The translations under genes were made by a program, and so were the position numbers. A stretch of DNA of 62,917 bases, counting the filler. It is 6 parts of 6 records of this genome, joined end to end, with 100 filler letters (N's around TTAATTAATTAA, not from the genome) between each part and the next. Parts side by side here need not be neighbours in the genome. Positions count along the whole stretch, not along the records: positions 1 to 30,996 come from SRR20825010_3254; 5 more parts are not named here. The stretch is one strand, 5' to 3'. Under the pieces are notes generated by a model. That model saw nothing but the letters and a program-made list of their open reading frames with translations. It had not been told where the DNA came from and made no database searches. This document shows, one piece after another, positions 2 through 4,893 of the stretch. The number at the start of each line of letters is the position of its first letter. Positions within the stretch are counted from its first letter, which is position 1.

Positions 2-2269
2 GAAATGCTTAGTTCGTTTCATTACTATGGTGTTAGTGATTTATCAATAGACAATACCGAAGTTGACAACAAAACAGATTTTAGATATTTAAACACGGGT
101 GAACGAGTTGAACGAATCATTGAAAAGGCAAAATTCTACGGAACTGATAATGGAATTACTAGAGGCTTAATTTTTTGTGCTAGAAATGAAGAGGCAGATG
201 AATTATCGGCTTTATTTAATGCAAAAGGATTTAAAACCATAGCCTTAAGGGGCGATAGTTCTGAAGAAGAAAGAGAAAATTCCATTGAAAAATTAGAGAC
301 CGATAGCCTAAGCGAAAAATATGATTACGTATTCACTGTAGACATATTCAATGAGGGAATTGATATTCCAAAAATCAATCAGATCATCATGTTGCGTCCA
401 ACCCAGTCTGCAATTATTTTTATTCAGCAGTTGGGAAGAGGGTTAAGAAAGGTTGATGGAAAAGGTTATTTAACAGTAATCGATTTCATAGGAAACTATG
501 AAAACAACTACCTCATCCCTATCGCCTTGTATGGTGATACATCTTACAACAAAGACTCTTTGAGGAAATTGATAACGGAAGGCAGTAGAATGATTCCTGG
601 AGCTTCTACCATCAATTTTGATGAAATCACCAAAGAAAGAATCTTTCAATCCATTGACTCTGCCAATATGCAATTGCTCTCTGACTTGAAAAAGGATTAC
701 AACCTTTTGAAATTCAAGTTGGGTCGAACTCCAATGATGATGGACTTTATTGAGCATGGTTCTCGTGATCCTTTCTTATTCGTGGATTACGCTAATTCCT
801 ATTACAACTTTATCGTAAAAGTTGAGAAAGCAGAAAACGTAGCATTATCAAAACAACAGATGAAATTACTGGAGTTGTTTGCTAAAGAAATAAACAACTC
901 AAAACGACTTGAAGAAAGTCTAATCCTCAAAACACTGATCGAATCAAGTAAACTTTCCGTGAAAGAATTGAAAGAACAAGTGCTTAAAAAGCATGGATAT
1001 TCCATTTCTGAAGAGACAATAAAATCTTGCGTTTCTAACTTGAATTTTGAGTTTGTTCGCGAAAAGAAAGACGGCAAAATGCTCCCTGCTAAAGATATCT
1101 ATGACTTAGATATTCTAAGCATTGTAAACGGAAATCTTGTCTTTTCGAACGCGTTTTCAGCACACTTGAATCAAACTGAATTCAAGCGCTTTCTGCTCGA
1201 TTCAGCAGCTTATTCGATTTACGAGTTCGACAGATTGTTTGACGCAGACAAATGGCAAAATGGATTTGTGCTTTACAGAAAGTATTCGCGGAAAGATGTG
1301 TTCAGAATATTGAATGTGGCGGAAAATCCCGTTGCCCAAAACGTAGGGGGATATCTTGTAAGTCCAGACAATGAACATTGTCCAATTTTTGTGAACTATC
1401 ACAAAGAAGAGCATATTTCGGAATCGACAAAGTATGAAGATGAGTTTGTAAACAACAAAGAATTTGATTGGATGTCAAAGTCTAATCGAACGTTGAAGAG
1501 TAATGATGTTCAGTCAATTTTAGGTCAAAACGGGCCTATTCGCCTACCGTTGTTTATCAAAAAAAACAATGATGAAGGAATGGACTTTTACTACATGGGC
1601 GAAGTAAGCCCTGAATTAAATCAAGTGAAACAAACCACCATGCCGAACGACAGTGGAAAGCAACTTTCAGTGGTGAAAATCAGATTCAATTTGGCTAACC
1701 CTGTGACATCTATCATGTACAATTATTTACATGAAAAGTCAGCAATCGAGACTGTTAAGCCAGCAAAAACAGCCAAAGTCATTCCGATTCAACAATCTTT
1801 GAGTTTTGAAGAAGAACTGAGAAACCCGATTCCATTCTATGACTTTTATGCTGCTGCAGGCACATTTAGCGAATTACAATCAGAGAAGGATTTTACTCTC
1901 ATTGAAGGTCCAGAAAACAGTTCAAGCAACGATTATTTCGCTTGTAAAATCATTGGTGAATCAATGAATAGACTCATCCCGAATGGTTCTATTTGCTTGT
2001 TCAAACCATACACTGGTGGTAGCAGGAATGGGAAAATTGTGTTGGTCGAAAACAAGGACATTCAAGACCCTGATTTCAACTCGGCATTTACCATCAAAAC
2101 TTACTCTAGCGAAAAGTCTGTTTCGGAAGAAACGTGGGGACACACTTCTGTCGTGTTAAGACCAAACTCATTTGATAGCTCTTACCAAAACATAATCATC
2201 ACCGAAGAAAACGCTGAAGAAATGAGGGTTGTTGGCGAGTTTGTGAAAGTTTTGATACATACCACTTAG
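2..2269 (+). CDS. SF2 helicase + DUF3427 protein (SauUSI-like type IV restriction enzyme architecture) with C-terminal S24/LexA-like peptidase domain; 5'-partial
   Basis: Frame is open to the window edge. Helicase motifs IV-VI: GLIFC, VDIFNEGIDIP, FIQQLGRGLR. DUF3427-like block: YSRKDV...PIFVNYHK...YEDEF...FDWMSKSNR...LFIKK...FYYMG. C-terminal AAAG / GESM / FTIK. The N-terminal PLD and DExH parts would lie upstream of the window. Confidence 0.8.
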   Translation, partial: EMLSSFHYYGVSDLSIDNTEVDNKTDFRYLNTGERVERIIEKAKFYGTDNGITRGLIFCARNEEADELSALFNAKGFKTIALRGDSSEEERENSIEKLETDSLSEKYDYVFTVDIFNEGIDIPKINQIIMLRPTQSAIIFIQQLGRGLRKVDGKGYLTVIDFIGNYENNYLIPIALYGDTSYNKDSLRKLITEGSRMIPGASTINFDEITKERIFQSIDSANMQLLSDLKKDYNLLKFKLGRTPMMMDFIEHGSRDPFLFVDYANSYYNFIVKVEKAENVALSKQQMKLLELFAKEINNSKRLEESLILKTLIESSKLSVKELKEQVLKKHGYSISEETIKSCVSNLNFEFVREKKDGKMLPAKDIYDLDILSIVNGNLVFSNAFSAHLNQTEFKRFLLDSAAYSIYEFDRLFDADKWQNGFVLYRKYSRKDVFRILNVAENPVAQNVGGYLVSPDNEHCPIFVNYHKEEHISESTKYEDEFVNNKEFDWMSKSNRTLKSNDVQSILGQNGPIRLPLFIKKNNDEGMDFYYMGEVSPELNQVKQTTMPNDSGKQLSVVKIRFNLANPVTSIMYNYLHEKSAIETVKPAKTAKVIPIQQSLSFEEELRNPIPFYDFYAAAGTFSELQSEKDFTLIEGPENSSSNDYFACKIIGESMNRLIPNGSICLFKPYTGGSRNGKIVLVENKDIQDPDFNSAFTIKTYSSEKSVSEETWGHTSVVLRPNSFDSSYQNIIITEENAEEMRVVGEFVKVLIHTT

Positions 2270-2301
2270 TAAGTGGTATAGACATCTCTAGTTTTTCGCC
2301 C

Positions 2302-2322
2302 TTGTTGGTGTTGTCACCAACA
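2302..2322. repeat. Palindromic REP-like element, copy 1 (TTGTTGGTGTTGTCACCAACA)
   Basis: Hairpin TGTTGGTG-ttgt-CACCAACA between convergent genes; exact 21-nt reverse complement at 5352-5372. Confidence 0.7.
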
Positions 2323-2343
2323 GGCAACCTTTCTCTTTATTCC

Positions 2344-3276
2344 CTAATGTATAATTCTAGACTTTGTAGACAGAATATGTTTGAATTCACCAGGAGTGAT
2401 TAATTCATATTCTTTGAATTTCTTATTGAAATAGCTAGGGTTGTTAAAACCCGACAAGTAAGCTATCTCGGAAATCTGGTAGTTCGTGCTTTTTATAAGC
2501 TTCTTAGAAAGCTTAATCCGTTCGCAGGTAATATAATCTATGGGCGATATGCCCAAGGTGTTTTTGAAAACCTTGAAAAAATGGGACTTGCTCATACAAG
2601 CTTTGTCTACCAATTTGTCAATGGATATGTTCTCTGTAAGGTGTGCCTTGATATAACTAATCGCATAAGCAATTCGATGATCACTCAAGAAGTTTTCAGT
2701 ACTTTCTAACAAAGAGTTTCTGGCTTTAGACTGTAATAACCTTATGATCAACTCCTTAATAATACCATCAATAAAGATATCTTTCGAAGTATGATCTTCG
2801 GTAAACGTAAACACCAACCTATCTACCAACTGTTGAATTCCCTTATGGTTATCTAAATGAAATGAATTTTCTGCTAAATCCCAGTTTCCATTCTCCTGCA
2901 AATCAATAATTGTCATTTCGTTAAAAGAGTCTACTACCTCATTTATTTTACTCGGATCAATAGTGAGTGCCAAACATTGGGTAGGTGTTTTCCTTGTGGC
3001 TTCAGGAAAATCAATCAACATCGTTTTACCACTAGGAATCACTACAGATTCACCCGGAAAAAAATCAAAGGAAGTCATGTCTTCAAGATGCATTACCTTT
3101 TTACCCGTAAGCATGCTGGCCAAAACTGGGTAATCAAATGTTAGACTAACCTTTTCAGCCGCTTGGTGAGTTTCAAAAATATTAAGTTCCGAATAGGCCG
3201 AGTTATATACCGTGTAATTCTCAACCAATGTGGTTAATTTTCTTTCCCGCTTATGCTTTTGGAGTAGTCTTTCCAT
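2344..3276 (-). CDS. AraC-family transcriptional regulator
   Basis: C-terminal double HTH (ACMSKSHFFKVFK...GFNNPSYFNKKFK); divergent from the aldehyde dehydrogenase gene. Confidence 0.9.
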   Translation of the reverse strand: MERLLQKHKRERKLTTLVENYTVYNSAYSELNIFETHQAAEKVSLTFDYPVLASMLTGKKVMHLEDMTSFDFFPGESVVIPSGKTMLIDFPEATRKTPTQCLALTIDPSKINEVVDSFNEMTIIDLQENGNWDLAENSFHLDNHKGIQQLVDRLVFTFTEDHTSKDIFIDGIIKELIIRLLQSKARNSLLESTENFLSDHRIAYAISYIKAHLTENISIDKLVDKACMSKSHFFKVFKNTLGISPIDYITCERIKLSKKLIKSTNYQISEIAYLSGFNNPSYFNKKFKEYELITPGEFKHILSTKSRIIH

Positions 3277-3393
3277 GGTTTAAGGTAGAATCAGATTTTC
3301 ATTTCATTTTCTAAGATTATCGTCTTATCAGATTTTATTGTTTTGAACGAGCTTGGGTTTTATTCAGTGTAATAAATCTAAAGAAAAAACAAT

Positions 3394-4893
3394 ATGAGTT
3401 ACAGCAAACCAAAATTTAAGGAAAAATACGGAAATTTCATCAACGGTCAGTTCGTTGCCCCTGTCGATGGTGAGTATTTCGATAACACCTCCCCTGTTGA
3501 CAATTCCTTGATTGCAAAATATCCAAGGTCAAAAGAAGCCGATGTAGTCAATGCAGTAGCCGCAGCAAAAGCCGCAAAAGATGCTTGGGGCAATACCTCA
3601 GCAGCCGCTAGAGCAGCATTACTCAATAAAGTAGCCGATATTATTGAAGCCAACCTTGAAGAATTCGCGTTGGTAGAAACTTGCGATAATGGCAAGCCCA
3701 TCAGAGAAACTCTAAATGCTGATGTCCCCTTGGCTGTTGACCACTGGCGATATTTTGCAGCAGTAATTAGAGCAGAAGAAGGTTCGGCTACGGAATTGGA
3801 CGAAAACACGCTCTCTATGAACATCAAAGAACCGCTGGGTGTTGTAGCGCAAATTATTCCTTGGAATTTCCCGCTATTGATGTTGTCTTGGAAGCTTCCT
3901 CCTGCGTTGGCAGCTGGTAACTGCGTGGTATTAAAACCTGCAGAGCAAACACCTTCTTCAGCTACTTTATTAATGGAAAAAATTGCCGAGGTATTCCCTC
4001 CTGGTGTAGTAAATGTAATTCACGGTTTTGGTCCAGAAGCAGGAAAGCCATTGGCCTCTAGCTCAGAAGTAGACAAAGTAGCCTTTACAGGAGAAACCAC
4101 TACGGGACAGCTCATAATGCAATATGCGTCTAAAAACCTAAATCCAGTAACCATGGAATTGGGTGGTAAATCACCAAATATTTTCTTCAACAGTGTAATG
4201 GACGAAGATGATGCTTACTTAGACAAAGCCATTGAAGGAGCGGTATTGTTCGCTTTCAATCAAGGTGAAGTTTGTACTTGCCCTTCAAGGTTATTGGTGC
4301 AAGAAGACATCTATGATAAATTCATGGAGCGCGTAATCGCCAGAACCGAAGCGATTGTACAGTCGAGTCCTTATGACACTGCCTGTATGGTAGGTGCTCA
4401 GGCTTCTAATGACCAATTCGAGAAAATTTTATCTTATATCAAAATTGGAAAAGAAGAAGGTGCCAAGGTATTGACTGGCGGTGAGGCTTGTAAATTGGAT
4501 GGAGAGCTTGGGAACGGATTCTACGTACAGCCAACCATTTTGGAAGGCCACAATAAGATGAGGGTATTCCAAGAAGAAATCTTCGGCCCTGTAGTTTGTG
4601 TTACCAAATTCAAAGATGAAGCCGAAGCATTGGAAATTGCCAATGACACGCTCTACGGTTTAGGTGCTGGCGTTTGGACAAGAGATGCGCATCAGCTGTA
4701 TCAAATTCCAAGAGCGATTAAAGCAGGTAGAGTTTGGGTGAATTGTTACCATGCATACCCTGCACATGCGCCTTTTGGTGGATACAAAAAGTCAGGTTTT
4801 GGTAGAGAAAATCATTTAATGATGATGAACTACTATCGTCAAAACAAGAATATGTTGATTTCTTATGACAAAAATAAATTGGGCTTCTTTTAG
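3394..4893 (+). CDS. aldB: NAD(P)-dependent aldehyde dehydrogenase, AldB/ExaC type
   Basis: [42 protein letters not shown] (catalytic Cys), EEIFGPV, final KLGFF. Confidence 0.92.

Follow-up and report, generated by a model that had tools for sequence, protein, structure and literature searches.

The window analysed here, a stretch of DNA of 62,917 nucleotides, begins inside a gene (positions 2..2269, plus strand) for a type IV restriction enzyme of the SauUSI type whose C terminus carries a tail resembling the C-terminal domain of LexA, a domain of family S24. The fusion belongs to a large, conserved family found mainly in Bacteroidota, the catalytic serine and lysine of the tail are invariant, and related tails are present on many other restriction and defence enzymes. 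Self-cleavage of the tail, triggered by filaments of RecA on single-stranded DNA (RecA-ssDNA filaments, RecA*), might serve as a fuse that turns the enzyme off, a form of restriction alleviation; weighing the evidence given below, we regard this proposal as evenly balanced between right and wrong. The original prediction, in which the direction had been left open ("switched on, off or re-oligomerised"), can be narrowed to the extent that the evidence now leans toward "off".

A SauUSI-type restriction enzyme with additional C-terminal residues

Positions 2..2269 form a single open frame of 755 codons plus a stop codon (2267-2269), which is open at its 5' end. From comparison with full-length relatives (1143-1155 amino acids), the whole gene is expected to have about 1150 codons, with its 3' two thirds in the window and an estimated 393 N-terminal codons, encoding the PLD nuclease and the first helicase lobe, beyond the window start. 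The window protein matched the PADLOC type IV model mREase_IV (PDLC03658) with an E value of 1.6e-123 over profile positions 401-951 of 953. Helicase_C (PF00271, E = 4.5e-15), the second RecA-like lobe of the superfamily 2 (SF2) motor, occupies residues 52-149 (positions 155..448, plus strand, as are all features of this gene), and DUF3427 (PF11907, E = 1.5e-79) occupies residues 293-576 (878..1729). DUF3427 is the SRA-like target recognition domain (TRD) of SauUSI (PMC6765204, PMC7913695). It is followed by a variable linker rich in Lys, Ala and Pro (residues 577-609; 1730..1828), by the cleavage-site region (residues 610-630; 1829..1891) and by the S24 catalytic core (residues 631-751; 1892..2254). 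Peptidase_S24 (PF00717) was matched at residues 616-746 with 28.4 bits, compared to a curated cut-off of 23.3. The helicase part, the DUF3427-like domain and the S24 tail that had been read from the letters are thus all recognised by Pfam, the tail above its cut-off, and the linker noted before the tail does exist.

The predicted scissile bond, A619-G620, is encoded by GCA-GGC at positions 1856-1861; the catalytic residues are Ser654 (TCA, 1961-1963), in the motif G-E-S-M, and Lys699 (AAA, 2096-2098), in F-T-I-K. These residues lie at the bases where they had been placed; numbers refer to the 755-residue frame, and the counts that were one lower in the original prediction result from counting from the ATG at position 5. 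Gly620 and Ser654 are 34 residues apart, the spacing that had been equated with that of E. coli LexA (G85, S119). The distance from Ser654 to Lys699 is 45 residues, compared to 37 (S119-K156) in Escherichia coli LexA.

The part of the gene beyond the window start could be evaluated in full-length relatives. P0001, which is 92% identical to the window protein, has the domain order PLDc_2 (residues 63-175), ResIII/DEAD (ResIII at 216-367), Helicase_C, DUF3427 and Peptidase_S24, with the motifs H-T-K (121-123), G-S-S-N (138-141), GTGKT (248) and DETH (336). A PLD domain had been predicted to lie outside the window, and both of the upstream motifs proposed for inspection, that of the nuclease (H-T-K) and that of the helicase (DETH), were found in this relative. 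For the SF2 helicase-like ATPase, Helicase_C is in the window and the first lobe (ResIII, GTGKT, DETH) was seen in relatives only. P0001 covers profile positions 1-951 of 953 of the PADLOC type IV model (E = 1.1e-231), and its residues 3-944 align with PDB chain 7clg_A (953 amino acids; E = 2.6e-220). The paper on the structure of SauUSI (PMC7913695) names the entry 7CLG. At the position that matches E126 of the SauUSI motif H(X)K(X)4E (PMC7913695), P0001 has a lysine. By homology, then, the window gene is a SauUSI-type type IV enzyme with about 180 extra C-terminal residues, as its architecture had suggested, and the resemblance to 7CLG predicts ATP-dependent cleavage of DNA that contains 5-methylcytosine (5mC) or 5-hydroxymethylcytosine (5hmC).

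The fusion is widespread. A search of a protein collection clustered at 90% identity yielded 7995 scored relatives of the window protein. The best 120 of the 7995 were 78-92% identical to it and mostly 1143-1158 amino acids long, apart from about ten shorter sequences that are partial or N-terminally shorter. A precomputed PF00717 match was available for 95 of these 120, and the others, with the same length and coverage, fall just below the threshold (for example P0032, 22.6 bits). When one genome per species was scanned, a homologue was detected at 76 loci, nearly all of them in Bacteroidota records, including several cultured isolates; an intact frame of at least 1100 amino acids that includes the tail was present in 59 alignment rows (the window and 58 loci). 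The survey of how often the fusion occurs therefore revealed a conserved family in which proteins of 1143-1155 amino acids are common among Bacteroidota.

The gene is cut by the window start, and the window alone cannot show the full protein, which leaves room for a fusion made by assembly or gene calling. However, one uninterrupted frame runs through DUF3427, the linker and the S24 domain, and the same architecture recurs at the 76 loci, several of them in isolates, and in thousands of database proteins. An artefact is thus extremely improbable and was rejected, and with it the one-off chimera that had been named as an outcome that would overturn the prediction.

Sequence identity, averaged over all pairs in the family, was 0.81 in the cleavage-site region, 0.73 in the S24 core, 0.79 in the helicase and 0.68 in DUF3427, and fell to 0.28 in the linker, the sole poorly conserved stretch of the protein. 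Six tail-less relatives, one of them 80% identical, terminate cleanly behind DUF3427, and the sequence that follows contains no tail remnant. Because the tail-less relatives stop without a remnant and the tail is conserved as the other domains are, the tail is therefore an add-on that is maintained by selection where it is present.

The tail has the fold and the catalytic residues of an S24 domain

Direct comparison of the tail sequence with the PDB gave nothing beyond one weak LexA match (E = 0.3), and no NCBIfam model matched the tail; the assignment to S24 therefore rests on Pfam and on structure. An AlphaFold2 model of the tail, built from a 61-sequence alignment, had a mean predicted local distance difference test (pLDDT) score of 83.7 and a predicted template modelling (pTM) score of 0.78. 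The only stretch with a pLDDT below 50 was tail residues 22-32, which is the Ala-Gly loop. Foldseek returned 28 PDB matches at E ≤ 0.001, and those listed were all LexA, lambda CI or UmuD. With VIA-align, the highest score was to Thermotoga LexA (3k2z_B; Z = 13.1, root mean square deviation 2.7 over 118 residues), followed by E. coli LexA (Z = 12.3-12.8, the lower value for the RecA-filament chain 8gms_B), lambda CI (12.0) and UmuD' (10.9); signal peptidases scored about 7. Chains from other RecA-filament complexes gave Z = 12.0 (8gmu_A) and 10.6 (8gmt_A). The match of the modelled tail to LexA, CI and UmuD' is far beyond chance, and no other fold reached that level.

Conservation was evaluated in 104 tails, consisting of the window tail and the 103 with full coverage among the best 150 of 1191 matches (E ≤ 0.001; 613 at E ≤ 1e-10) from a tail-only search of 1.84 billion cluster representatives (clusters at ≤50% identity). 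S654, K699, G652 and M655 are invariant in all 104. Residue 619 is Ala in 100 tails and Cys in the other 4, a Cys-Gly site being the one that is cleaved in UmuD. Residue 620 is Gly in 94 tails, Thr in 7 and Ser in 3, with the catalytic Ser and Lys retained throughout. Elsewhere in the cleavage-site region P611 is kept in 102 tails, A618 in 96 and F622 in 100, so that the three residues before the cut read Ala (65), Val (25) or Ile (10), then Ala (96), then Ala (100). Positions conserved specifically in this subfamily are P611, F646, C665, R675, D689, Y701, S703, K705, W712 and H714. The ten tails with Thr or Ser in place of Gly620 may be uncleavable or slow variants, or may be cut elsewhere. 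One short protein (P0171, 287 amino acids) has two S24 stretches in tandem.

In the genome loci the Ser-Lys dyad was present in 66 of 73; the seven misses are the six tail-less forms and one broken gene. Judged from sequence and model, the tail looks like a catalytically competent S24 domain. The view that it is intact thus agrees with its LexA fold and with the dyad in 104 of 104 tails, and the survey of the Ala-Gly, Ser and Lys positions found the last two invariant and Ala/Cys-Gly nearly so.

LexA proper, the SOS repressor, was considered as an identity for the protein and rejected. No helix-turn-helix (HTH) domain was above the Pfam cut-off in the window protein, where two weak matches (E = 0.11 and 0.16) fall inside DUF3427, and the N-terminal part is a nuclease-helicase, as had been anticipated in describing an enzyme with no repressor domain. 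Although the protein is not LexA, its tail may function as the C-terminal domain of LexA does.

The same tail is found on many restriction and defence enzymes

Pfam domains were scanned in 103 of the best 150 tail matches, which comprised 49 longer and 54 shorter proteins. Among the longer proteins the tail accompanies a DUF2075/Schlafen-type helicase in 18 (some with GIY-YIG), DUF3427 in 7, the type I HsdR C-terminal domain in 2, the type ISP C-terminal domain in 2, ResIII only in 2 and Helicase_C only in 2. XhoI, a type III-like endonuclease domain, the MrfA zinc domain, UvrD_C and a PLD nuclease were each found once, and 11 proteins had no second domain. The shorter proteins are mostly gene fragments; 11 retain such a cargo (one of them an Mrr nuclease), 40 have S24 only, and 3 have an HTH domain and appear to be ordinary repressor-like proteins. 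PADLOC named cargoes as type I, II, III, IIG and IV restriction enzymes and as DruE-, DrmD/BrxH- and NERD+UvrD-like proteins. Taken together, the Pfam and PADLOC assignments for the best 150 matches give at least ten structurally unrelated cargo types that carry the tail. In 102 of the 103 matches with full coverage the tail lies no more than 20 residues from the C terminus, so that the cargo is N-terminal.

A quick tree of the 104 tails, in which 55 of 101 inner branches are unresolved, was used solely to look for mixing of enzyme classes within well-supported clades. Type ISP and PLD proteins were joined with support 98; type ISP, type I and Mrr proteins with support 99; and DrmD-, DruE- and type III-like proteins with support 98. 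Since well-supported clades mix enzyme classes, the S24 module has moved between cargoes. By these sequence comparisons the tail is a portable module of many enzyme classes and is not peculiar to the SauUSI-type enzyme.

Three genomes from the order of the 93% relative G001 (G031, G098 and G148) have no SauUSI-type gene and contain an S24 tail that is 48-50% identical and ends frames of about 730 residues (G031:C5:67956-68423, G098:C44:225123-225581, G148:C50:20408-20875). About 730 residues is the length of the DUF2075/Schlafen-type fusions.

A NUDIX gene accompanies the restriction gene

In relatives, a NUDIX gene of 131 codons lies directly upstream of the restriction gene and overlaps its start (for example L001:8434-8829). 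The window begins inside the enzyme gene, and the NUDIX gene therefore falls outside it; the linkage is known from relatives. Among 68 loci that could be evaluated, 64 had an intact NUDIX gene directly upstream, 2 had a frameshifted one and 2, the Firmicutes-labelled loci L075 and L076, had it directly downstream. Both loci with a frameshifted NUDIX gene also have a broken enzyme gene. In relatives, the NUDIX gene is thus an obligatory partner of the restriction gene. It also accompanies tail-less forms and is therefore a trait of the SauUSI family as a whole, independent of the tail. Linkage of a MutT/NUDIX gene to SauUSI, and to 60 or more of its relatives, was described by Xu et al., who left its function open (PMC3141236).

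The NUDIX protein matched the PADLOC candidate PDC-S07 (E = 3.7e-46), and its closest solved relative, aligned over the whole length, was 3gwy_A (Q5LBB1_BACFN; E = 1.9e-39). Its score with a NudG-type NCBIfam model was 78.8 bits, below the cut-off of 156, and the MutT model was also below cut-off. Q5LBB1_BACFN hydrolyses 5-Me-dCTP, 5-hydroxymethyl-dCTP and 5-Me-CTP with kcat/Km values above 1e6 per M per s and canonical nucleoside triphosphates far less well (PMC5158307). The partner NUDIX protein most likely hydrolyses 5-methyl- and 5-hydroxymethyl-dCTP as well. It would protect the host because these predicted substrates would turn host DNA into a target of an enzyme that depends on 5mC or 5hmC, and would perhaps also withhold these nucleotides from phages whose DNA incorporates modified cytosine.

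An alignment of 16 regions upstream of the NUDIX gene had only the start codon context in common, besides a partly shared (A/T)(C/T)CAACAAGT-like word. The word lies about 25-40 bases before the NUDIX start in about half of the 16 loci (L006, L010, L014, L020, L023, L052 and others), and might represent a promoter or operator, or mark the boundary of the mobile cassette.

Self-cleavage as a possible off-switch

If self-cleavage of the tail turns the enzyme off, events might proceed as follows. The enzyme would read 5mC and 5hmC in DNA through DUF3427 and act on it with its PLD nuclease and SF2 translocase, and the NUDIX protein would keep modified cytosine out of host DNA. Breakage of the cell's own DNA, by the enzyme or by other damage, would give rise to RecA-ssDNA filaments, and these would prompt cleavage of the Ala619-Gly620 bond by the tail. 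The cut would free a 135-residue S24 core and leave an enzyme ending in ...Phe-Tyr-Ala-Ala-Ala. This Ala-Ala end could act as a C-terminal ClpXP signal like those of ssrA and LexA, the enzyme would be degraded, and restriction would stay off until the damage was repaired, an alleviation that is autonomous to the protein.

The "off" direction is favoured because the protein is laid out like LexA and CI, with an N-terminal cargo, a flexible linker, the Ala-Gly site and then the S24 core, because the cut cargo would end in Ala-Ala, like ClpX degrons of the ssrA and LexA type, and because the tail is carried by subunits that damage DNA in many restriction classes, among them type I HsdR with its known ClpXP-dependent alleviation. 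Neher et al. are said to have found in 2003 that the N-terminal fragment of LexA ends in Val-Ala-Ala. Self-cleavage of LexA and CI is stimulated by RecA-ssDNA filaments and inactivates the cargo (PMC8565304, PMC10584840), and cleavage of LexA reveals latent ClpX signals through which the fragments are destroyed (PMC10584840). What matters most in strong C-terminal degrons for ClpXP in E. coli is a terminal Ala-Ala, although this does not suffice by itself (PMC10862746). Restriction alleviation itself is a temporary loss of restriction during DNA damage stress, which for EcoKI is brought about by ClpXP acting on HsdR (PMC4231737). The genome of the 93% relative G001, taken as a stand-in for that of the window, has RecA and ClpX; no C5-cytosine methyltransferase was found in it.

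Several observations weigh against this proposal. Alleviation is classically explained by unmodified sites that arise during repair, an argument not directly applicable to an enzyme that depends on modification; for a type IV enzyme, the explanation must therefore lie in breaks that the enzyme itself inflicts or in recently gained methylation. Recognition by ClpXP requires Ala-Ala, which alone does not suffice, and the rule comes from E. coli (PMC10862746); moreover, Ala-Ala before the cut is also a LexA-type site and may reflect the needs of cleavage and not a degron. The cleavage loop is modelled with low confidence, which leaves the geometry of Ala-Gly relative to the dyad undefined in the model, and the lack of Gly after the cut in 10 of 104 tails means that some tails may not self-cut. 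Tail-less enzymes of this type, including SauUSI, function without such a switch. Furthermore, the Bacteroidetes SOS box CTAA-N5-TTAG (PMC8565304) was seen upstream of the cassette at just 1 of 66 loci, in a scan whose fixed offsets may have missed sites, and the sequences thus give no sign of a transcriptional link between the cassette and the SOS response.

The opposite direction has to be considered, in which the tail holds the enzyme inactive or mis-assembled until RecA filaments on phage replication intermediates or damaged DNA trigger a cut that yields an active nuclease-helicase. Many defence systems are kept off until infection, which counts in favour of activation, as does a tail that is intact and conserved. 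S24 cleavage activates UmuD, by conversion to UmuD' (PMC8565304). However, in UmuD the S24 part stays and works, whereas here it would be discarded, and the cargo is N-terminal, an arrangement shared with the repressors that are inactivated by cleavage. It is also difficult to envisage one and the same inhibitory contact for a small tail on a linker as variable as this one (identity 0.28) behind at least ten unrelated cargoes, and restriction must hit DNA at entry, ahead of RecA filament formation. Relatives up to 80% identical end cleanly after DUF3427 without a tail, and SauUSI is active without one (PMC3141236), so that activation by cleavage appears unlikely. We consider it unlikely to a similar degree that the tail has no part in a damage switch and is a module for dimerisation or scaffolding, or undergoes a constitutive, RecA-independent cut as maturation. 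LexA-type C-terminal domains dimerise in the solved structures that were matched, SauUSI works as a dimer (PMC7913695), and the cut-site Gly is missing in 10 of 104 tails, all of which would suit such a role. On the other hand, a purely structural role leaves the invariant Ser and Lys (104 of 104) and the Ala/Cys-Gly site (at least 94) unexplained, and SauUSI already dimerises via its nuclease domains (PMC7913695).

It is quite unlikely that the tail serves to dock the enzyme on RecA filaments or to cleave another protein, and so steers the nuclease-helicase to recombination intermediates. The tail model does superpose on the LexA, CI and UmuD chains of RecA-filament complexes (Z = 10.6-12.3), but a conserved internal Ala-Gly at the LexA spacing, 34 residues before the Ser, points to cleavage in cis, and no conserved candidate substrate gene stands beside the cassette, whose flanks vary between genomes. 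A role in the repair of modified cytosines, or in clearing them from nucleotide pools, in place of defence, in which an SOS-linked tail, a NUDIX enzyme like MutT and a helicase-nuclease that flips bases would act on host DNA, would fit the sub-threshold scores of the NUDIX protein with the MutT and NudG models, the housekeeping genes, not defence islands, at the flanks and the unusually high conservation of the protein (74-93% identity at most loci). This role is nevertheless very unlikely, since the enzyme is plainly related to SauUSI, for which restriction has been demonstrated (PMC3141236), PADLOC defence models recognise both genes (mREase_IV and PDC-S07), and the distribution is patchy, with a full-length match in 1 of 151 genomes of the order of G001, which is the pattern of a mobile accessory gene.

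Self-cleavage that turns the enzyme off may also apply beyond the SauUSI type. A cut that exposes a degron works on a cargo of any fold, which fits a module attached through a variable linker to at least ten unrelated enzyme types. Hence it is possible, and we put this forward tentatively as somewhat short of an even chance, that the tail is a portable self-destruct device responsive to RecA, repeatedly acquired by the DNA-damaging subunits of ten or more classes of restriction and defence enzyme, with breakage of self-DNA leading to a cut in the tail, exposure of an Ala-Ala degron and removal by ClpXP. Restriction alleviation would then have a molecular basis within the enzymes themselves. 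The classes covered are type I, II, III, ISP and IV restriction enzymes, Mrr, and DUF2075/Schlafen-, DruE-, DrmD- and UvrD-like helicases.

Comparison with known systems

In SauUSI the PLD nuclease, SF2 translocase, coupler and DUF3427/SRA-like TRD follow one another as they do in the window family, and a NUDIX gene is linked to it, as in relatives of the window gene. SauUSI ends after the TRD at 953 amino acids, whereas the window family adds about 35 linker residues and an S24 module of some 145. A search of the available texts of the two SauUSI papers for the terms S24, LexA and peptidase found no mention in either. With LexA, lambda CI and UmuD (MEROPS S24) the tail shares the fold (Z = 10.6-13.1), the Ser-Lys dyad, the Ala/Cys-Gly site and the 34-residue spacing from Gly to Ser, and with LexA and CI also the N-terminal position of the cargo, which in the window is a nuclease-helicase of about 1000 residues instead of an HTH domain.

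Alleviation of EcoKI (PMC4231737) is likewise a post-translational shut-off of a DNA-damaging subunit, and HsdR C-terminal domains are among the tail cargoes. The resemblance is one of possible mode of action and not of membership: in EcoKI, ClpXP recognises the enzyme as it translocates and a degron was not found, whereas the signal proposed for the window tail would be built in and freed by self-cleavage. The partner NUDIX protein matches Q5LBB1_BACFN (3GWY) in sequence and, below cut-off, the NudG-type model; Q5LBB1_BACFN and E. coli NudG are NUDIX hydrolases of 5-substituted (d)CTP (PMC5158307), from which the activity of the partner is predicted.

A protease domain fused to a modification-dependent restriction enzyme is also known from AmaNI, for which the authors presume a role of the caspase domain in regulating restriction through cleavage, or else in abortive infection (PMC6765204). 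This is the nearest printed idea, although AmaNI differs from the window protein in having a caspase and not an S24 domain, an HNH nuclease and no proposed link to RecA. A full-text search found no paper on an S24 tail of a SauUSI-type or other restriction enzyme, although tailed homologues may be listed in supplementary Table S3 or the phenogram of PMC7913695, and an S24 tail is not mentioned in the DUF3427 screen or the YprA/ARMADA preprint. The parts have already been named by automatic annotation (such as the JGI description 'helicase / HKD family nuclease / SOS-response transcriptional repressor LexA'), and the NUDIX linkage is in print (PMC3141236).

Neighbourhood, distribution and decay of the cassette

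The gene that follows in the window, at 2344..3276 on the minus strand, is convergent with the restriction gene and was assigned to the AraC family through its syntenic counterparts in two Roseivirga records (L001 and L002). A hairpin followed by a T-rich run, resembling a terminator, lies between the restriction gene stop and this gene (2310..2328, plus strand); it comes from a pattern scan only, in which 1 was found compared to 0.2 expected from shuffles. Scanning the whole window with Rfam gave no match.

The window is syntenic with L001 and L002, which are 92-93% identical, and AraC-family and aldehyde dehydrogenase genes follow in both (window 2270-3394 was compared with L001:12272-15682 and L002:12272-16500). 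Between the restriction and AraC genes, both records carry genes for a zinc-type alcohol dehydrogenase and an NmrA-like NAD(P)-binding protein, to which L002 adds a glyoxalase-family gene; the window instead has 74 bases with the terminator-like hairpin. In general, the flanks of the cassette differ between genomes and are housekeeping genes rather than defence islands.

Sampling 151 genomes of the order to which G001 belongs gave one full-length match, in G001 itself, and in three further genomes a match to the tail only. Copies that are 74-93% identical are present in records named as several Bacteroidota orders. Because the gene is patchy within the order of G001 and yet has copies of this identity across orders, it has the pattern of a mobile accessory gene. 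Copies 75-79% identical are also found on contigs labelled as Gammaproteobacteria, Bifidobacterium and Nitrososphaeraceae metagenome-assembled genomes (L020, L070, P0105), which could reflect mis-binning or very recent transfer out of Bacteroidota. Decayed forms were encountered as well: at L057 and L074 both the NUDIX and the enzyme genes are broken, and at L023 the enzyme frame stops at 743 amino acids with the tail still readable further on (83.9% identity).

Implications

How a host is protected from its own DNA-cutting defences is understood mechanistically for few systems, among them the action of ClpXP on EcoKI HsdR. If the proposal is correct, a damage-sensing, self-cleaving tail would be a simple and general answer to autoimmunity across enzyme classes, and immune effectors would join transcription factors and UmuD among the known targets of the RecA* co-protease signal. 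The pairing of the enzyme with a predicted 5-methyl/5-hydroxymethyl-dCTP hydrolase gives a testable role to the SauUSI-linked NUDIX protein, whose function has been open since 2011 (PMC3141236). Enzymes of this kind are barriers to the genetic manipulation of Bacteroidota, and a damage-triggered off-switch might be a means to lower that barrier.

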